From: Acidimicrobiia bacterium
Lineage (GTDB): Bacteria > Actinomycetota > Acidimicrobiia > Spongiisociales > UBA5794
Assembly: GCA_041393965.1 (NCBI GenBank)
Contig: JAWKJB010000002.1
Span: 339-64,338, forward strand
Length of the DNA stretch: 64,000 nt
Direction of reading: 5' to 3'
Positions 3,414 through 17,640 of the stretch are shown in pieces. The position numbers and the translations under genes were made by a program. The notes under the pieces were generated by a model that saw nothing but the letters and a program-made list of their open reading frames with translations, did not search any database and was not told the DNA's origin. The first letter of the stretch is position 1. Every line of letters starts with the position of its first letter.

Positions 3414-3926
3414 TCAATCGATCTGATGGCTGTCTGTTTCGCTGAGGGTTTTGCGTAGGAGGGGCAGGGAGGCGCGGTCCTTGTCCCTGCCGGCTGCTTG
3501 TTTGCTGCGAATCACATCAGCCAAGGATGCCACCATGACGAAAAGTGCTGGCGATGTGCGGATTTGGGTGGAGTCGGCGGATCGTACGAGGTCTTTGTAG
3601 CCGGTTGTGCCGTCTGGCATGAAGACGAGATCAAGGTCGCCGTGGATCGTGGTCAATGTCCAGGAGTCCACGGATTGCAAGAAGCCCGGCTCTATCGGGA
3701 AGGCAAGCCCTTCGGGAGCTTCTGCGGTGCGTAGCTTGGCTTCAAGAGCCGTGAGCGCATCTGCGAGCTGGGTGAGGTTTTGGGCGTCGTTGGCTGGGGT
3801 GATGTCGATGTCCTGTGTGAGGAGCGGTGCGCCTCGGAGCCTTGCGGCGATGCCACCGATCACAATGAACTGCACATCGTGGTCGATGAGCACCTCGAGG
3901 AGGGCAACAGGATCGAACTCACGCAT
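3414..3926 (-). CDS. Minimal nucleotidyltransferase-fold protein (possible toxin/partner of the upstream XRE regulator)
   Basis: N-terminal hG[GS]...DhD NTase signature (FIVIGGIAARLRGAPLLTQDIDI). 8-nt overlap with the upstream XRE gene. Confidence 0.6.
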   Translation of the reverse strand: MREFDPVALLEVLIDHDVQFIVIGGIAARLRGAPLLTQDIDITPANDAQNLTQLADALTALEAKLRTAEAPEGLAFPIEPGFLQSVDSWTLTTIHGDLDLVFMPDGTTGYKDLVRSADSTQIRTSPALFVMVASLADVIRSKQAAGRDKDRASLPLLRKTLSETDSHQID

Positions 3927-4236
3927 GTGCAGCGTCCTGCATAGCCGTTAGGGCATTGACGGCTCGTGCCATGGACCCGAGTCGTTGTTCGGGGGTGACG
4001 GCAAGCTCTCGTCTGATGAGGGCGATGTCGTGATCGTCTCGTGGGGTGATGCTGATCGTCAGGTCGAAACCGGCTGCTCGCACGGCCTGCTCGACCGTCT
4101 CCAGCGAAGGCGAGGTGCGACCCCTCTCCCATCGGGCAACCACAGGCTGGTGAGTTCCCAGACGGCGGGCGAATTCTGCTTGGGTCAATCCAGCCCGTTT
4201 CCGAGCTTCGGCGATGATCCTTGCACTAGACGACAT
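3919..4236 (-). CDS. XRE-family helix-turn-helix transcriptional regulator
   Basis: Classic XRE HTH (AGLTQAEFARRLGTHQPVVARWERGRTSPSLETVEQ); first gene of a two-gene module. Confidence 0.75.
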   Translation of the reverse strand: MSSSARIIAEARKRAGLTQAEFARRLGTHQPVVARWERGRTSPSLETVEQAVRAAGFDLTISITPRDDHDIALIRRELAVTPEQRLGSMARAVNALTAMQDAAHA

Positions 4237-4249
4237 GCCTCATATCATA

Positions 4250-4261
4250 AACGATATCGTT
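4250..4261. promoter_or_regulatory. Perfect 12-bp palindrome AACGATATCGTT, with a second ACGATAT half-site 17 bp downstream, in the AT-rich region just upstream of the XRE gene. Candidate autoregulatory operator.
   Basis: Seen directly; local AT-richness contrasts with the ~68% GC genome. Confidence 0.4.
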
Positions 4262-4395
4262 GTCATACCAGATACGATATTTATCGAGGGTTCCATCGCG
4301 ATGGTCGTGGGAGTCGAGCGAGCCTCGGCGTCGTCGACCAGCGCCCAGCCGCTCAACCCGAGACGAATGCCTGCCGGGGGCGGGCCAATGGTTGC

Positions 4396-8561: not shown

Positions 8562-8918
8562 TGCCCCGACCGGCAATGTTTGCCGCGTTGACGGCGGCCA
8601 GATGACATCGCTGGCGGCGTCCTCGTCTTCGACGCATCCCCTGATGCGCCTTCGTCTTGCGTCCTGGCCAGCCATGCCCCTGGCTCGACTTCAACATCGC
8701 CAACGAAACCGGACAGGCACGAGCGATAGCGCCGCGCTGACGAGTCCGATCGCACTGAGATGCTCGACAGATGGCAAGCGACACGGCGAACCATTCCGGT
8801 GCTCGTTCGTCGCCGGATTCGGACCGGGGCGACTGACCGCGGGGACTCCAGATTCTGCCAGTGGATCGCACAATCGGGCGACTACCCTTTGGGGTAGGGA
8901 GACGATGGGAGAGGGCCG

Positions 8919-9182
8919 ATGACCGACGAACAGCGACAGTGGGCAATCAAACGGATCAAGGAGAAGCGAGCCTTCTGGACCCACCTCGTGGTCTACGTCG
9001 CCGTCAACGCCTTCCTCGTCGCGATTTGGGCGATCACCGACCGCAGCTATTTCTGGCCGGCGTGGGTCATGCTCGGTTGGGGCATCGGTCTCGTTGCCCA
9101 CGGATTGACTGTGTGGTTCGGTCCCTCCGACATCACCGAGGAGAGGATTCAGAAGGAGCTGCGAAGGCGTCGCAGCGGGTGA
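8919..9182 (+). CDS. 2TM domain-containing protein
   Basis: 87 aa with two TM helices and a conserved W/F-rich segment typical of the pfam 2TM family. Confidence 0.6.
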   Translation: MTDEQRQWAIKRIKEKRAFWTHLVVYVAVNAFLVAIWAITDRSYFWPAWVMLGWGIGLVAHGLTVWFGPSDITEERIQKELRRRRSG

Positions 9183-9283
9183 GGTACCGAAACCGTTTGC
9201 GATGACAGACTCCTCCGATCAGCAGACCTCGCGAAATCTCTGCCTCCTCGGGGGGCAGCGGTGTGCTACGGTGATGGTGAAAG

Positions 9284-9394
9284 CCCGAGGGGCTCTGGAG
9301 AGTCGGGTTGTCCCGGCTGAGACCTCGTAAACCAGCGAGGATATCCATCGAACCTGAACCGGATCATGCCGGCGCAGGGATCGAGTTCCTCGGG
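9284..9394 (+). ncRNA. TPP (THI-box) riboswitch
   Basis: P1 CCGAGG...CCTCGG; P3 CGGGttgtCCCG followed by GCTGAGA; then GAACCTGAACCGGATCATGCCGGCGCAGGGA, matching the conserved ACCUGAUCYGGAUAAUGCCAGCGUAGGGA core. Confidence 0.85.
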
Positions 9395-9503
9395 CTTTCT
9401 TGATGAATCCGCCGCCACCGCGGCCGCTTCCCTACTTTCTCTCCCGTCCGTGGTCGCGCCTTGCTCGAGAGCCCGCTTGGTGTACGGCTTGCGATCGGAG
9501 TAG

Positions 9504-9519
9504 TTATCACATATGATAA
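9504..9519. promoter_or_regulatory. AT-rich inverted repeat TTATCA-N4-TGATAA immediately before/overlapping the start codon of the AbiEii-like gene
   Basis: Seen directly; sits in a ~40-bp AT-rich island (agtagttatcacatatgataagtatatggtccatatg). Confidence 0.4.
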
Positions 9520-9523
9520 GTAT

Positions 9524-10213
9524 ATGGTCCATATGAGTGCAACACTGAGAACGGTCTTGGCGTCGGCTGCACTGCTGCAGGAGGTCGTGCCTGACGCCGT
9601 GTTGGTGGGTGGAGCAGCTGCGGCGCTGCATGCCGGTCACCGAGACTCGTTTGATCACGACCATGTCCTTGCCGATTTGGTGGAGCGGTACGAAGCCGTA
9701 CTGGAGGCAGTCGAGGCGACAGACGGGTGGGCAACCTCAGTGCGGGCTTCGAAACCGCCGTTCACGATCATGGGCAGCTTGTGGGGTGTTGAGGCAGGCC
9801 TTCGCCAGATGCGCCGCACCCGACCGCTCGAGACCTGTGAGATTGACCTGGATGAGGGGGCGGTTGTGGTGGCTCCAACGGCACCAGAGACACTCCGTGT
9901 GAAGGCGTTTCTGGTCGTGCAACGCAATGTGGTTCGTGACTATCTGGATGTGGTGGCACTCACTGAACACCTCGGATTCGGCAACGCCGTCGAGATCCTC
10001 TCCCGGATCGACGACTACTACACGGATCGATCAAACGAGCACGGCTCAGTCCTGACCTCGCTCGTGATCGCCCTTGCTGATCCCGCACCTCGGGACAGCG
10101 AGGTGATCGGCGAGCTTCCCCGCTACAAGGGACTCAAGGAGCGATACCACCGCTGGGAAGATGTGGTCGAGCTGTGCCAAGCCCTGGCGCTTCGACTCGG
10201 TGGTGCTCTTTAA
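9524..10213 (+). CDS. AbiEii/AbiGii-family (DUF1814-like) nucleotidyltransferase-like protein
   Basis: N-terminal LVGGAAAALHAGHRDSFDHDHVL matches the AbiEii GG...HR.S.DID signature, with DHDH in place of DID; C-terminal K..F...QR...RDYLDVVAL. Stop overlaps the next start (TAATG). Confidence 0.6.
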   Translation: MVHMSATLRTVLASAALLQEVVPDAVLVGGAAAALHAGHRDSFDHDHVLADLVERYEAVLEAVEATDGWATSVRASKPPFTIMGSLWGVEAGLRQMRRTRPLETCEIDLDEGAVVVAPTAPETLRVKAFLVVQRNVVRDYLDVVALTEHLGFGNAVEILSRIDDYYTDRSNEHGSVLTSLVIALADPAPRDSEVIGELPRYKGLKERYHRWEDVVELCQALALRLGGAL

Positions 10214-10662
10214 TGCCGATCACCTTCCGCAATGTCGACGCATCACCAACCGACGATGTCCGAACACTGCCGTATGAGGCACTGGTCACCCTGGTTGATC
10301 GCGGGCTTGTTGCCGACTGGAAGCCGCTGTTTCGCGAGATGCGCCGTTCGCCGTGGGGGAAGGTGGCCCGGCGCGTCGAACACTATCTCTCATACCGCGA
10401 ACCCGATGGTGTGAGCACCCTATTTGCCCTCGCGATCGAGCATGCCCGCAGCGATGCCGAGGCCGCTGATCGAGTCGAGGTGGCCGCCCGGATTCGAAGA
10501 GCCGCTGACGACTCGGGAATCACCAACGCCGAATTCGCTCGGCTTGTCGGAACGAGTGCCTCCCGGTTGAGCACATATCTGAGAGGCACGGTCATCCCAT
10601 CGGCCTCCATGTTGGTGCGAATCGAGCGTTGCGGCGAATACGGTGACGGTGGCGACGGCTGA
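10213..10662 (+). CDS. Hypothetical protein with a C-terminal XRE-type HTH (putative cognate regulator/antitoxin)
   Basis: C-terminal ITNAEFARLVGTSASRLSTYLRGTVIPSASMLVRIE; 1-nt overlap coupling with the upstream gene. Confidence 0.55.
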   Translation: MPITFRNVDASPTDDVRTLPYEALVTLVDRGLVADWKPLFREMRRSPWGKVARRVEHYLSYREPDGVSTLFALAIEHARSDAEAADRVEVAARIRRAADDSGITNAEFARLVGTSASRLSTYLRGTVIPSASMLVRIERCGEYGDGGDG

Positions 10663-10837
10663 TGGTGCTCCCTGACGAAGTCGCCGAGCCCCGGGTCCCC
10701 GCAGCGCCCTCCGATTCCCTTCTGTGGGTGGCTCCGGTCGAACACCAACCCTCGGCAGGCGTGAGATCGAGCCGATCATCGCGAACGCCGGCGAGATGCC
10801 CCTATCCCGCCGGGTCGAGATCGAGGGATCGCATCCG

Positions 10838-11539
10838 TCAGAGCAACCACACGGCCAGCTCGGAGTCGTCGTCCGTACGGGCGCGTTGGTGTCTTGAGGC
10901 TTGGTCGATACCTTCGATGATGAGATCGAGCCCGAACTCGAAGGAGTCACCGAAGTCGTAGCCCGGTTGGAGGACATGCTCGATAGCCAGCTCTGCCAAG
11001 TGGGGATACTCGTCGAACGGCATCGAGGCTGCGATCTCCGCAGCGGCCTTTGGCAAGTCTTCACCGGCGCCAGCGCCGGGGAGCGTTGCCTCCTCGAATG
11101 CGAAGCCGTAGATGAAGCTGTCGAGAACTGCGTATGCGTGCGCGGTCAACGCGATCGATAGGCCACCTCGTCGCAGACACCCGATGACGGCGTCGTGATG
11201 CCGAAGGTTCGCCGGACCGGGGGAGGGCCCGGACTCCATCAACGGGGCGGCCCATGGGTGGCGGTTGAGGACCGCGCGTGCCGACACGCACCGCCTGCGG
11301 ATGGCCGTCTTCCAGTCCAGGTCCTCAGGCGGCAGCTCGATCTCGGCAAAGACCAGCTCGACGATCCCGTCGATGATCGCCTCCTTCGAAGGAATGTGGT
11401 GGTAGAGCGTCATCGGTGCGGTCCCGAGCACATCGGCAAGCTTCCGCATCGTGAACGCCTCAAGCCCGTGCTCGTCGGCGAGACCAACCGCCGCTTCGAG
11501 AATGAGGGTTTGGGTGAGACGCTCCTTGCTCGTGGCCAT
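10838..11539 (-). CDS. TetR/AcrR-family transcriptional regulator
   Basis: N-terminal TetR HTH (RLTQTLILEAAVGLADEHGLEAFTMRKLADVLGTAPMTLYHHIPSKEAI). Confidence 0.8.
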   Translation of the reverse strand: MATSKERLTQTLILEAAVGLADEHGLEAFTMRKLADVLGTAPMTLYHHIPSKEAIIDGIVELVFAEIELPPEDLDWKTAIRRRCVSARAVLNRHPWAAPLMESGPSPGPANLRHHDAVIGCLRRGGLSIALTAHAYAVLDSFIYGFAFEEATLPGAGAGEDLPKAAAEIAASMPFDEYPHLAELAIEHVLQPGYDFGDSFEFGLDLIIEGIDQASRHQRARTDDDSELAVWLL

Positions 11540-11570
11540 GTACCGCATCTCCGGATTGCACATTGACGAT

Positions 11571-11615
11571 CGTACTAAGTACGAGTAGCATCATAGTCTA
11601 GCCGTACTAAGTACG
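11571..11615. promoter_or_regulatory. Two copies of the 13-bp palindrome CGTACTAAGTACG (11571-11583 and 11603-11615) in the TetR / MDR-oxidoreductase divergent intergenic region; candidate tandem TetR operators
   Basis: Exact duplicated palindromes 32 bp apart, between divergent genes. Confidence 0.55.
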
Positions 11616-11637: not shown

Positions 11638-12681
11638 ATGGGACGGCAACATACGACCAGCGACGCAGCAGGCGCTACATCAGCCCCCCGAATGAAGGCC
11701 GTCGTCCAGCGGGCGTACGGGTCCGCCGACACGCTCGAACTCGTGGAGGTCGATAGTCCCGAGATCGGGCCAACCGAAGTGCTGGTCGAGGTCTGGGCCG
11801 CAGGGGTCGATCGAGGCGTGTGGCACATCATGACCGGACTGCCGTACCTGGTTCGCATCATGGGCTATGGCCTCAGACGACCAAAGACGGCCGTTCTCGG
11901 GTTCGATCTGTCAGGGCGCGTCGTCGCCGTCGGCGCCGAGGTTGAACGGTTCGAGGTCGGGGACGAGGTCTTCGGCATCGGCCGGGGCTCATTTGCCGAG
12001 TACGCGGTCGCAGACGAATCGAAACTGGTTGCCAAGCCAACAGGGATCACCCACGCGGAAGCGGCCGTTGCTGCGATCTCAGGCACCACAGCAGTCCAAG
12101 CGGTGACTGATGTCGGAAGGCTCGAACCCGGTCAGACCGTGCTGGTGATCGGCGCCTCGGGTGGCGTCGGGAGCTACGCCGTTCAGCTTGCCAAGGCCCT
12201 TGGTGGAACCGTCACGGGCGTCGCACGAGGCGCCAAGGCCGGATTCGTGCAGGACCTCGGCGCCGACTATGTCATCGACTACACCAAGACTGACTACTTG
12301 GACGGCGCCAGCCGGTACGACCTCATCGTCGACGCCGGCGGCGGAAACCCGGTGAGAAAGCTGCGTCGGGCGCTCACCCGGCATGGGACACTGGTCATCG
12401 TCGGTGCCGAAGGCGGTGGGCGCTGGACGGGCGGCGTTGGTCGATCGCTCCGAGCGTTCATCCTGTCGCCGATGGTTCCCCAGCGACTCACCTCGTTCAT
12501 CGCCAAGGAAGGGCACGAACACATCGCGCGGGTCGCGGAGTACCTCAGAACCGGTGAGATGGTGGCAGCCGTTGGGGAGCGGTTCGAGCTCGCCGATGCC
12601 GCAGAGGCGCTTCGCAGACTCGAAGCTGGCACGACCAGCGGCAAGTCCGTCATCATCGTGAAAGCGGACCATGAATCGTGA
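11638..12681 (+). CDS. Zinc-independent MDR-family NAD(P)H:quinone oxidoreductase / alcohol dehydrogenase-like protein
   Basis: GxGxxG (VIGASGGVGSYAVQLA); ADH_N/ADH_zinc_N-like architecture; good SD GGAGGA upstream. Confidence 0.75.
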   Translation: MGRQHTTSDAAGATSAPRMKAVVQRAYGSADTLELVEVDSPEIGPTEVLVEVWAAGVDRGVWHIMTGLPYLVRIMGYGLRRPKTAVLGFDLSGRVVAVGAEVERFEVGDEVFGIGRGSFAEYAVADESKLVAKPTGITHAEAAVAAISGTTAVQAVTDVGRLEPGQTVLVIGASGGVGSYAVQLAKALGGTVTGVARGAKAGFVQDLGADYVIDYTKTDYLDGASRYDLIVDAGGGNPVRKLRRALTRHGTLVIVGAEGGGRWTGGVGRSLRAFILSPMVPQRLTSFIAKEGHEHIARVAEYLRTGEMVAAVGERFELADAAEALRRLEAGTTSGKSVIIVKADHES

Positions 12682-12768
12682 ACACCTGATGGGAATCGGT
12701 CCGTGGTCCGTCTCGGGGCGGGGATCCGATACGGTGTGGCTACGGTTGGACACCGCGGAGGCAGCAAC

Positions 12769-13692
12769 ATGGCGGTGATCGTCGTCGACGAGTTGACCAA
12801 GAGCTACGACGACAGGGTCGTTGTCGACGATGTGTCATTCACGGTGGAGGAGGGCGAGATCTTCGCCATCCTCGGGCCAAACGGGGCGGGCAAGACGACG
12901 ACGGTGGAATCGATAGCGGGGCTGCGCACGCCCGATTCCGGGCACATCGAGGTGTTCGGCTTCGATCCGCTTGCCGATCGGGTCCAGGTCCGGAGCCGAC
13001 TCGGCGTGCAACTCCAAGAGAGCCGTTTCCAGGACCGCATCAAGGTGCGGGAGGTCATCGAGACATTCGCCTCGTTCTAGCCCGAACCCCTCGGTGTCAG
13101 TCAGCTCCTTGACCGTCTCCGACTCGACGACAAGGCCGATACGAGGTACGCGAGACTGTCCGGGGGCCAACAGCAGCGCGTCTCGATCGCGGTTGCCCTC
13201 GTTGGTCGACCTCGCGTCGTCATCCTCGACGAGTTGACGACCGGTCTGGATCCGCAAGCCCGACGAGAAACATGGGGCTTGGTCGAAGAGCTTCGCGATG
13301 GCGGTGTGACGATCGTCCTTGTCACCCATTTCATGGAGGAGGCAGAGCGGCTTGCGGACCGCCTTGCGCTGATCGACGAGGGGCGACTCGTGGCGCTCGA
13401 CACCCCCCGCGGGCTTGTCGAGCGTGTAGGTCTGGAGCAGCGACTTCGGTTCGTCACCGCAGAGATCGTCGAGGACGCGTGGCTCGAAGCCCTCCCGGAG
13501 GTCACCGGGGTGACCCGGGCCGGAAGCGAGATCGTGGTAACCGGCAACGACAAGATGCTGTTTGCCGTTGTGTCCCTCCTTGCCGGTCGTGAGATCGTCC
13601 CCGACCGGCTCCAAGTCGACCAGCCCACCCTCGACGACGCGTTCGTCGCCATCACCGGGCGCCGCCTCGACACGGCTGAGGAGCTGTCATGA
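12769..13692 (+). pseudogene. ABC transporter ATP-binding protein interrupted by a single in-frame TAG at 13078-13080
   Basis: Walker A (GPNGAGKTT) before the stop. LSGGQQQRVSIA signature, Walker B (VVILDELTTGLDP) and H-loop (VTHFMEE) follow in the same frame. The only disruption is ...ETFASF*PEPLGV... Confidence 0.7.
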
Positions 13693-14432
13693 AGGCACTC
13701 ACCGCGCTCACCAAGTCCCAGTCGAAGGTCTTCTTGCGGGAGCCGCTGTCCGTCTTCTTCGGTCTGGTGTTCCCGGCGCTGCTCCTCGTCATCATCGGAA
13801 CGGTCTATCCGGGTGCCACGGATCCGGACCCGGGGTTGGGAGGTCGCAGTCTCGTCGAGGTCTATGCCCCCGTGAGCATCGCCCTTGGACTGGCTACGGT
13901 TGCGCTCTCCCTCCTTCCCGCGACGCTCGGTGGCGATCGGGAGCGGGGCATCCTGCGACGACTATCGACAACTCCCGTTCACCCCAGGACGCTTGTGGCT
14001 GCTCACCTGATTGTGCAGTTTGTCGTGGTGACCATCGCTGCGGTTGCGGCCGTCTTGCTCGGGATGCTGGTCTTCGACATCCCGTTTCCCGAACTTCCCT
14101 GGTGGTTCGCCGTCTCCTACGCGTTGGGGGCGGTCTGCCTGCTGACGGTCGGATCGTTGATCGGGGCCGCGGTGTCAACGGCGAGCTCGGGTCAGGCGCT
14201 CGGGATGCTGTTCTACTTCCCATTGCTCTTCTTCGCAGGGGTCTACATCCCGCTCGAGGTGATGCCAGAAGGGATTCGGACCGTGAGCAGCTATACCCCG
14301 AGCGGGGCAGCCGTGCAGGCCCTTTCGGCGAGTTGGGCGGGGACTGTGCCCGCAGCGTCGAGCGTCGTAATGATGGTGGTGTATGTGGTGGTGCTCGGTT
14401 CAGTGGCCATATGGATCTTCCGCTGGGACTGA
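13689..14432 (+). CDS. ABC-2 family transporter permease
   Basis: 6 TM segments; 4-nt overlap with the ATPase gene. Confidence 0.7.
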   Translation: MKALTALTKSQSKVFLREPLSVFFGLVFPALLLVIIGTVYPGATDPDPGLGGRSLVEVYAPVSIALGLATVALSLLPATLGGDRERGILRRLSTTPVHPRTLVAAHLIVQFVVVTIAAVAAVLLGMLVFDIPFPELPWWFAVSYALGAVCLLTVGSLIGAAVSTASSGQALGMLFYFPLLFFAGVYIPLEVMPEGIRTVSSYTPSGAAVQALSASWAGTVPAASSVVMMVVYVVVLGSVAIWIFRWD

Positions 14433-17448: not shown

Positions 17449-17490
17449 TGCGGGAGGGCTCCCTCCTCGCCAGACAGCTTCTATTATTCC

Positions 17491-17545
17491 GCCGCGGCGA
17501 TGGAGCTCGCCGAAAGCGCCCGACGGGCTGATGGCTCCTATTGAG
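17491..17545 (+). ncRNA. Fluoride riboswitch (crcB RNA motif)
   Basis: GCGGCGAUGGAGCUCGCC GAAAGCGCC CGACGGG CUGAUGGCUCC UAUUG aligns with the T. petrophila fluoride riboswitch (GGCGAUGGnnnnCGCC...AAnCnGCC...CUGAUGnnnCCU). Confidence 0.9.
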
Positions 17546-17640
17546 ACCACCCATCGAGGAGCCTCGTGTTTGAGCGGACCCGCGAACGACGACGATCTTG
17601 TACGGACCTGATCCGGCGGCTCGCGGCGCCCGGAGCGGTG

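Follow-up and report, generated by a model that had tools for sequence, protein, structure and literature searches.

Nucleotidyltransferases (NTases) of the DUF1814 superfamily that act as toxins, such as MenT and AbiEii, are a current focus of toxin-antitoxin (TA) and phage-defence biology. Three antitoxin families are known for these systems, namely, the MazE-like MenA1, COG4861 (MenA2), and the COG5340/AbiEi winged helix-turn-helix (HTH) proteins (MenA3, MenA4, and AbiEi), and all the characterised DUF1814 TA systems have the antitoxin upstream. Autoregulation by the DNA-binding antitoxin has been reported for AbiEi (PMC7450476), and a preprint on AbiEii lists JHP933, MenT1, Pb27, and MenT4 as members of the DUF1814 superfamily (bioRxiv 10.64898/2026.01.19.700257). 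The 64,000-nucleotide stretch of contig JAWKJB010000002.1 of an Acidimicrobiia bacterium analysed here (the window) harbors, at 9461-10662, two co-directional open reading frames (ORFs), gene 1 and gene 2, which a sequence-only reading had described as a possible uncharacterised TA or abortive-infection variant. It is proposed, with a probability of roughly 0.7, that these genes constitute an autonomous two-gene TA cassette of the MenAT/AbiE kind with a toxin-first order. The proposal is based on the family and fold of the gene 1 product, the strict pairing of the two genes, the conservation of an operator and its loss together with the HTH, recurrent natural knock-outs of the active site, purifying selection, and the varied genomic contexts in which the pair is found.

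Sequence analysis of the gene 1 protein revealed the motif region VLVGGAAAALHAGHRDSFDHDHV, in which the residues V28-G29-G30 ... R40-D-S42-F-D44-H45-D46-H47 follow the Pol-beta motif I pattern (hG[GS]-x9-13-D-h-[DE]-h) with both metal-binding carboxylates present, and the catalytic motif of the window copy is intact. The AbiEii NTase signature had been recognized earlier as carrying DHDH in the place of the usual acidic pair. The signature itself was confirmed, whereas the replacement of the acidic pair was rejected because D44 and D46 are intact and only the middle residue differs from that of the DID motif; DHDH is thus a clade-typical DxD. The stretch R40-D-S42-F-D44-H-D46 aligned with the register R37-x-T39-R-D41-x-D43 of MenT1, where T39 is the phospho-acceptor (PMC11375011), and with the R63/T65 phospho-acceptor register of AbiEii (bioRxiv 10.64898/2026.01.19.700257). 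Hence, the gamma-phosphate-binding Arg, a predicted Ser/Thr phospho-acceptor, and both carboxylates are all present in gene 1. In an alignment of 48 diverse members of the gene 1 family (A1), R40, G84, P118, E122, R134, R138, D139, and D142 were invariant, and G29, G30, S42 (at least 90% conserved), D44, D46, and K127 were nearly so. K127, R134, R138, D139, and D142 fall in the part that aligns to positions 126-191 of the Pfam AbiEii profile (PF08843) and are candidate motif III/IV residues.

In the PF08843 search, the window protein itself was sub-threshold, with 13.4 bits (E 0.074) against a gathering score of 22.5 and with profile positions 126-191 as the aligned part, while several of its clear homologues (E 1e-30 to 1e-78) passed the gathering score, with matches over most of the profile (P0232, 43.6 bits; P0247, 32.1; P0221, 30.8; P0132, 24.5; P0263, 23.2). 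Among the aligned relatives, 29 of 48 matched PF08843 at E<=0.01 (best 4.4e-11), and the match of P0221 covered profile positions 6-231 of 238. Membership of gene 1 in PF08843 is therefore transitive and not direct. The AlphaFold2 (AF2) model of gene 1 (pLDDT 97, pTM 0.93) showed a DUF1814-type fold, and its best matches among structures in the PDB were JHP933, MenT1, Pb27, and MenT4 (E 4e-5 to 7e-4). As judged from sequence and the modelled fold, gene 1 is a divergent DUF1814/AbiEii/MenT-type NTase, in agreement with the AbiEii-like identity first proposed. The family is large: more than 3,700 clusters at 90% identity matched the window protein, the best 120 of which were all at least 79% identical to it and all unnamed, and an exhaustive search retrieved 1,087 clusters at 50% identity (E<=1e-3).

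The position 9461, taken earlier as the gene start, is merely the first TTG of the maximal ORF, and the conserved start of gene 1 is the ATG at 9524. The NCBI annotation, the related loci, and locus L009 agree on this start: the annotation of the source metagenome-assembled genome (MAG; R2823_04820) gives a 229-aa protein with 100% identity to 9524-10210 (P0001), the first ATG or GTG lies 4-5 nt past the palindrome in the related loci, and the second in-frame ATG (9533) is changed to CTG in L009. This ATG does lie in the AT-rich island described earlier, outside the palindrome and 4 nt past its end. The AT-rich palindromic site was borne out as well. The palindrome TTATCACATATGATAA was the sole match in the window with at most one mismatch (expectation from shuffled sequences, 0.00), and the 40-bp stretch from 9499 has a GC content of 0.30, the joint lowest of the window. 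The window as a whole has 64% GC (mean 0.64, sd 0.064) and not the 68% ascribed to the genome.

The combination TTGCGA-17-TATGAT was the only sigma-70-like match in the 2.2 kb scanned (8800-11000). The last T of TATGAT precedes the A of ATG 9524 by 7 nt, and the 4-nt gap between the palindrome and the ATG leaves no space for a Shine-Dalgarno sequence. These two distances predict a leaderless gene 1/2 mRNA with a putative start site, the -10 box of which would be occluded by a bound repressor.

The operator was further evaluated in 80 species-level related genomes/loci (81 close copies in the substitution counts). With up to 2 mismatches allowed in the 12 arm positions, the palindrome was found once per locus, just before gene 1, in 73 of the 80 loci. 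The 73 aligned loci also showed a weak cTgGAC-like -35 signal at the same distance and a conserved G at -14. The information content was 1-2 bits per position over exactly 16 bp, the left arm included, and fell to ~0 bits in the flanks, the operator being the only conserved non-coding sequence at these loci. Synonymous sites between modules are saturated (median dS, the synonymous divergence, ~1.5), and the conservation of a non-coding operator must hence be selected. The promoter spacer, a normally unconstrained part, contains the left arm TTATCA, and this points to a protein-binding site rather than to promoter sequence alone. Thirty-nine module loci carried the exact operator pattern, in each case at the start of the module, versus 0/80 unrelated control loci.

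Gene 2 directly abuts gene 1 in 80/80 loci, and the TAATG junction, which was confirmed as described earlier, suggests that gene 2 is translationally coupled to gene 1. The order of the genes is non-canonical, the HTH partner being downstream of the NTase, and the XRE-type HTH was indeed found at the C-terminus of the gene 2 protein, where it scored 32.5 bits with HTH_31 (cut-off 27) and 29.9 bits with HTH_3 (cut-off 23). The AF2 model reached a pLDDT of ~94 over the HTH, which matched C.AhdI, ClgR, and P22 c2 in Foldseek. Gene 2 thus possesses the two features of XRE-family autorepressors, i.e., an HTH above the Pfam threshold and a cognate palindrome at its own promoter, and is predicted to bind the latter.

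The N-terminal domain (N-domain) of gene 2 is strongly conserved (FRNVDA..DDV..WPYEAL...DRGLV.DW...PWG..ARR...Y..YR) and belongs to no Pfam family; a Pfam search at E<=5 with four N-domain proteins yielded nothing meaningful, and Foldseek on the gene 2 model returned generic XRE HTH domains only and nothing for the N-domain. No AbiEi match was obtained for gene 2 in Pfam or PADLOC, and the match to TIGR03830/MqsA was weak (E 0.0097) and confined to the HTH. The N-domain forms a previously undescribed family and, given its predicted neutralising role, would be a new antitoxin family.

The palindrome is missing from seven loci (L016, L029, L032, L058, L063, L070, and L074). In five of these (L029, L032, L074, L058, and L070), gene 2 is shortened to 89-123 aa and is without the HTH, L029, L032, and L074 forming one sponge-symbiont lineage; in L016, the HTH part is frameshifted, and in L063, the whole module is degraded. 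L057 was the only locus without the HTH yet with the site (one mismatch). A GGAGG Shine-Dalgarno-like sequence has been gained upstream in the HTH-less L029 group. The loss of the operator together with the HTH is the strongest available support that the HTH recognises the palindrome, and the retention of the N-domain in the HTH-less loci indicates that, for the NTase, it is the N-domain that matters. The autoregulation proposed earlier is hence favored by a sharply bounded conserved operator lying over the -10 box and lost with the HTH, and this comparative evidence supports a cassette in which the HTH would recognise the palindrome and regulate its own genes.

Radical substitutions at G29, G30, R40, D44, or D46 were observed in 17 of the 81 close copies and were confined to these residues. 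They comprised G29R, G30D/E (7), R40S/L/P (3), D44V/A (2), and D46A/G/P/R (6), and were present in L006, L011, L018, L024, L030, L033, L043, L049, L052, L058, L062, L064, L065, L070, L076, L077, and L079, i.e., in about one fifth of the copies, with no accompanying frameshifts or stop codons. S42, H39, H45, H47, G84, P118, E122, K127, R134, R138, D139, and D142 were unchanged in 81/81. The nearest relative of almost every gene 1 mutant is wild type, which indicates ~15 independent substitution events. If hits were even over the 14 positions compared, the probability of all 17 falling in six motif I positions would be 5.6e-7. Both genes are under purifying selection (dN/dS, the ratio of nonsynonymous to synonymous divergence, of 0.10 for gene 1 and 0.15 for gene 2). 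Repeated inactivation of the catalytic centre in an otherwise constrained protein is what would be expected of a toxin and not of a beneficial enzyme, and is read here as a sequence signature of toxicity. The catalytically dead yet conserved copies also raise the question of a second role.

These substitutions bear directly on an alternative in which gene 1 is a small-molecule NTase, like ANT(2'')-Ia or LnuA, and gene 2 is its dedicated repressor with a ligand-sensing N-domain, so that the two do not form a TA pair. ANT(2'')-Ia and LnuA were among the Foldseek matches, with template-modelling (TM) scores of 0.44-0.48 by query length and 0.59-0.60 by target length, and ANT(2'')-Ia has been counted in the DUF1814 superfamily (bioRxiv 10.64898/2026.01.19.700257). 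The strong purifying selection and the ordinary chromosomal neighbours would also fit such an enzyme. However, recurrent substitutions that hit catalytic residues only, with the rest of the protein conserved, are unexpected for a beneficial enzyme, and the N-domain stays linked to and overlapping with the NTase gene even where the DNA-binding domain is absent, and on either side of it. In addition, relatives lie beside HipA and Fic genes, and the best structural matches are JHP933 and the MenT toxins. This alternative is therefore considered improbable.

The wider family showed a simpler arrangement. NTase relatives at 34-39% identity keep an overlapping small partner of 83-97 aa that is homologous to the N-domain of gene 2 (R-N/H-V ... 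G...DW ... P.G, pairwise E 1e-4) and is without the HTH. As a stand-alone protein beside the NTase, where the HTH is absent, the N-domain measures 83-105 aa. This partner is located downstream of the NTase in L081, L083, L084, and L168 and upstream of it in L169, L171, and the Pseudomonas putida plasmid pKF715A. Of the distant relatives inspected, L081 and L083 had no palindrome upstream and carried an ordinary Shine-Dalgarno sequence there. In L081 (283-2548), the NTase/partner pair adjoins HipA_C and Fic genes, and in L169 (300-1193), it adjoins a Fic gene; such neighbours suggest TA or defence islands. The HTH-fused version is present on the megaplasmid pBCI1-2 of Pseudonocardia sp. EC080619-01 (52% identity), with the identical palindrome TTATCACATATGATAA and the HTH protein downstream, and on a megaplasmid of Pseudarthrobacter sp. 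BIM B-2242 (54% identity), with the variant site TTATCGGAAGTGATAT. The plasmid relatives are labelled 'AbiEii/AbiGii toxin family' by PGAP. Hence, the core system consists of an NTase and a small helical partner, to which one successful clade fused an XRE HTH, along with gaining the matching operator and a predicted leaderless promoter.

The upstream flanks of the related loci are unrelated from genome to genome, and the neighbours in three long contigs are ordinary, differing chromosomal genes. The GC content at third codon positions (GC3) of the cassette genes is 0.67-0.68 as compared with 0.71-0.82 in the neighbour genes. Long contigs with the taxonomic labels Myxococcota, Thermoanaerobaculia, Acidobacteria, and proteobacteria carried copies as well. 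The unrelated contexts, the plasmid copies (Pseudonocardia, Pseudarthrobacter, and Pseudomonas), the lower GC3, and the contigs labelled as other phyla lend moderate support to horizontal acquisition, as had been supposed; the saturated dS indicates that the spread was ancient rather than recent. No insertion scars, integrase, or tRNA gene were found in the window, and the flanking direct or inverted repeats were unconvincing. In at least two other loci, the cassette lies directly downstream of a seeming tRNA 3' end and a terminator-like hairpin (L011, 1-60; L021, ~3880-3910), a typical insertion point of islands. No match to the cassette was obtained in phage genomes (tblastn) or with PADLOC; the abortive-infection role was overstated in the sequence-only reading, and any phage-defence role would be putative.

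By analogy with MenT1, MenT3, and AbiEii, gene 1 would most likely add nucleotides to tRNA 3' ends and thereby stop translation. The N-domain of gene 2 would bind the NTase and neutralise it by sequestering it or, in the manner of MenA1, MenA3, and AbiEi, by inducing the auto-phosphorylation of S42. The HTH dimer would bind the 16-bp palindrome over the -10 box and repress the leaderless bicistronic mRNA. If the antitoxin were lost or titrated, the toxin would thus be freed and the operon de-repressed at the same time.

Several observations weigh against this TA cassette. The structural matches of the gene 1 model are moderate (TM ~0.5-0.6), NCBIfam and PADLOC scans of gene 1, including the PADLOC AbiE models, gave no match, and a profile search of PDB sequences with gene 1 gave chance matches only. 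The AF2 confidence for the N-domain of gene 2 is moderate as well (pLDDT 65-78). Most copies have ordinary chromosomal genes as neighbours and no integrase close by, a setting that would be compatible with a housekeeping role as well, and the two proteins are 75-85% identical across orders, an unusually high conservation for a TA pair. The Fisher test of HTH/operator co-loss (p = 1.7e-7) is uncorrected for phylogeny and covers ~4-5 independent events. L029, L032, and L074 are HTH-less with an intact catalytic motif, and autoregulation is hence not essential for carriage of the pair. Taxonomy labels of MAGs outside Actinomycetota may also be unreliable. The TA cassette nevertheless remains the preferred reading, and the earlier description of an uncharacterised TA variant is in line with the predicted NTase family, the conserved operator, and the mobility. 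A broader, joint reading is tentative and rather unlikely: the N-domain would be a fourth, structurally new MenA-type antitoxin class that acts via S42 auto-phosphorylation (type VII logic), the dead NTases would be kept for a second, non-catalytic role of the toxin-antitoxin complex, e.g., as operator co-repressor, and an orphan thiamine pyrophosphate (TPP) riboswitch upstream could add thiamine-dependent read-through. The positions of the cassette features and of this riboswitch are given in Table 1.

Table 1. Features of the two-gene cassette and of the riboswitch upstream of it (positions in the window).
Feature	Position	Strand	Remarks
TPP riboswitch aptamer RF00059, full-length	9286-9399	+	54.8 bits vs gathering 54.3, E 5.5e-8, model positions 1-105
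-35-like hexamer TTGCGA	9489-9494	+	17 nt upstream of the -10 box
Operator TTATCA-CATA-TGATAA, 16 bp	9504-9519	+	predicted binding site of the gene 2 HTH dimer
-10 hexamer TATGAT	9512-9517	+	within the right half of the operator
Gene 1	9524-10213	+	229-aa DUF1814/AbiEii/MenT-type nucleotidyltransferase, predicted toxin
Catalytic motif I codons (G29 G30 ... R40 D S42 F D44 H D46 H47)	9608-9664	+	alignment A1
TAATG stop/start overlap	10211-10215	+	TAA 10211-10213, ATG 10213-10215; one base common to both
Gene 2	10213-10662	+	149 aa; predicted antitoxin and autorepressor
Gene 2 N-terminal domain, residues 1-85	10213-10467	+	helical, no Pfam family; predicted NTase-binding/neutralising
Gene 2 XRE-type helix-turn-helix, residues 90-139 of 149	10480-10629	+	HTH_31 1.1e-7, HTH_3 5.7e-7

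The TPP aptamer, which is placed 125 nt upstream of gene 1 and has an extended 17-bp P1 stem (9279-9295/9383-9399), raises a further alternative, in which the cassette of the source genome is under thiamine control through transcripts that read from the riboswitch into gene 1. The match is above the gathering score, no coding sequence other than the cassette runs in the same direction over the 2.2 kb downstream, and genes for the biosynthesis or transport of thiamine are absent within several kb of the riboswitch, the neighbours being a PMT_2 glycosyltransferase, an alpha/beta hydrolase, a protein with two transmembrane segments (2TM), a TetR regulator, a zinc-dependent dehydrogenase, and an ABC-2 transporter. 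Against it, the other loci are devoid of a TPP element upstream of the module (0/80), the cassette has its own conserved promoter and a predicted leaderless start, and the ATG of a read-through mRNA would have no Shine-Dalgarno sequence at the proper distance. An ancestral target of the element was sought by an exact-pattern scan of metagenome contigs (0 matches) and at 80 loci around homologues of the upstream 2TM gene, which had no TPP element. The simplest explanation is that the riboswitch, which is restricted to this genome and does not belong to the cassette, is an orphan left behind upon the loss or displacement of its target; that read-through regulates the cassette is conceivable but not likely, and as an explanation of the locus, thiamine control has very little in its favor.

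MntA-HepT pairs have the NTase gene first and overlapping genes. This order recalls a reversal of roles as in MNT-HEPN (type VII) systems, in which the NTase would be the antitoxin modifying a toxic gene 2 protein, but such a reversal is most improbable, as the N-domain of gene 2 is without the conserved Rx4-6H motif of HEPN partners (position 57, the candidate HEPN His, varies among H, Q, R, N, G, and K) and matches no HEPN family in Pfam or PADLOC, so that a HEPN-like gene 2 was rejected, while a fused autorepressor HTH is a hallmark of antitoxins, the natural knock-outs hit the NTase active site and would be lethal were the NTase the antidote, and the fold is that of DUF1814 and not the minimal MNT.

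A few other features of the window were observed. A second HTH/NTase-like pair is present on the reverse strand (3417-4236, -) in the canonical order, opposite to that of the cassette: a 105-aa XRE HTH protein (4236->3922, HTH_3 5.6e-15) is followed, with an overlap of 8 nt, by a 170-aa protein (3926->3417) that matches the DUF6036 nucleotidyltransferases weakly (E 5e-4). The region just upstream of this pair (4237-4290) contains the only other 40-bp stretch of the window at GC 0.30, and no detectable similarity was found between gene 1 and the NTase-like gene at 3417-3926. Downstream of the cassette, the 13-bp palindrome CGTACTAAGTACG occurs twice without change (11571-11583 and 11603-11615, 32 bp apart) between the TetR gene (10838-11563, -) and the divergently oriented zinc-dehydrogenase gene (11638-12681, +), and the two sites are probably TetR operators. 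An ABC-transporter ATPase appears to be split into two ORFs (12703-13080 and 13234-13692, +) upstream of the ABC-2 permease (13689-14432); the first ORF carries the N-terminal part of ABC_tran, and the split may reflect a frameshift, a pseudogene, or an assembly error. A fluoride riboswitch (RF01734) was detected at 17487-17547 (+) with 48 bits against a gathering score of 34.

The cassette, as predicted, defines a large uncharacterised branch of the DUF1814 NTases that is abundant in Acidimicrobiia, is found also on plasmids of Actinomycetes and Pseudomonas, and is missed by current defence and TA finders. The branch has a new partner domain and a variable gene order, and the XRE HTH with its matching operator has been added in one clade. 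The co-loss of the HTH and the operator and the repeated catalytic knock-outs are natural experiments that make the hypotheses on regulation and toxicity directly testable, and cultured hosts exist (Pseudonocardia sp. EC080619-01 and Pseudarthrobacter sp. BIM B-2242).

In MqsA, the N-terminal part binds the toxin, and the C-terminal part is an XRE-type HTH that recognises a palindrome within its own promoter. The cassette resembles MqsR-MqsA and HigB-HigA in its toxin-first order, in its N-terminal toxin-binding part (predicted here), and in the C-terminal XRE HTH. The likeness to MqsRA is architectural only, since the predicted toxin is an NTase and not an RNase and the N-domain is without the zinc-binding CxxC and is not homologous to MqsA. 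The stand-alone DUF1814 NTases JHP933 of Helicobacter pylori (4o8s, E 4.4e-5) and Pb27 of Paracoccidioides (5uvd, E 1.2e-4) are the best structural matches at an identity to gene 1 of ~15%, and these have not been described with a cognate overlapping partner or operator. The closest systems are MenAT of Mycobacterium tuberculosis (MenA1-MenT1, MenA3-MenT3, and MenA4-MenT4) and AbiEi-AbiEii of Streptococcus agalactiae, which are counted as type IV/VII TA and with which the cassette shares the toxin superfamily, the fold, motif I with R-x-S/T-x-D-x-D, and the two-gene operon, as well as, by prediction, the autoregulation of AbiEi. It differs from them in that the partner, in which a new helical domain of 85 aa precedes the C-terminal XRE HTH, falls outside the three known antitoxin families, in the toxin-first order of this clade, and in the operator placed over the -10 box of a predicted leaderless promoter. 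The cassette is not AbiE proper, as the partner is downstream, shows no match to AbiEi, and carries an HTH that is XRE-type and C-terminal. It extends a known principle and does not introduce a new one: the toxin superfamily is known, and the partner, the gene order, and the control site are previously undescribed.

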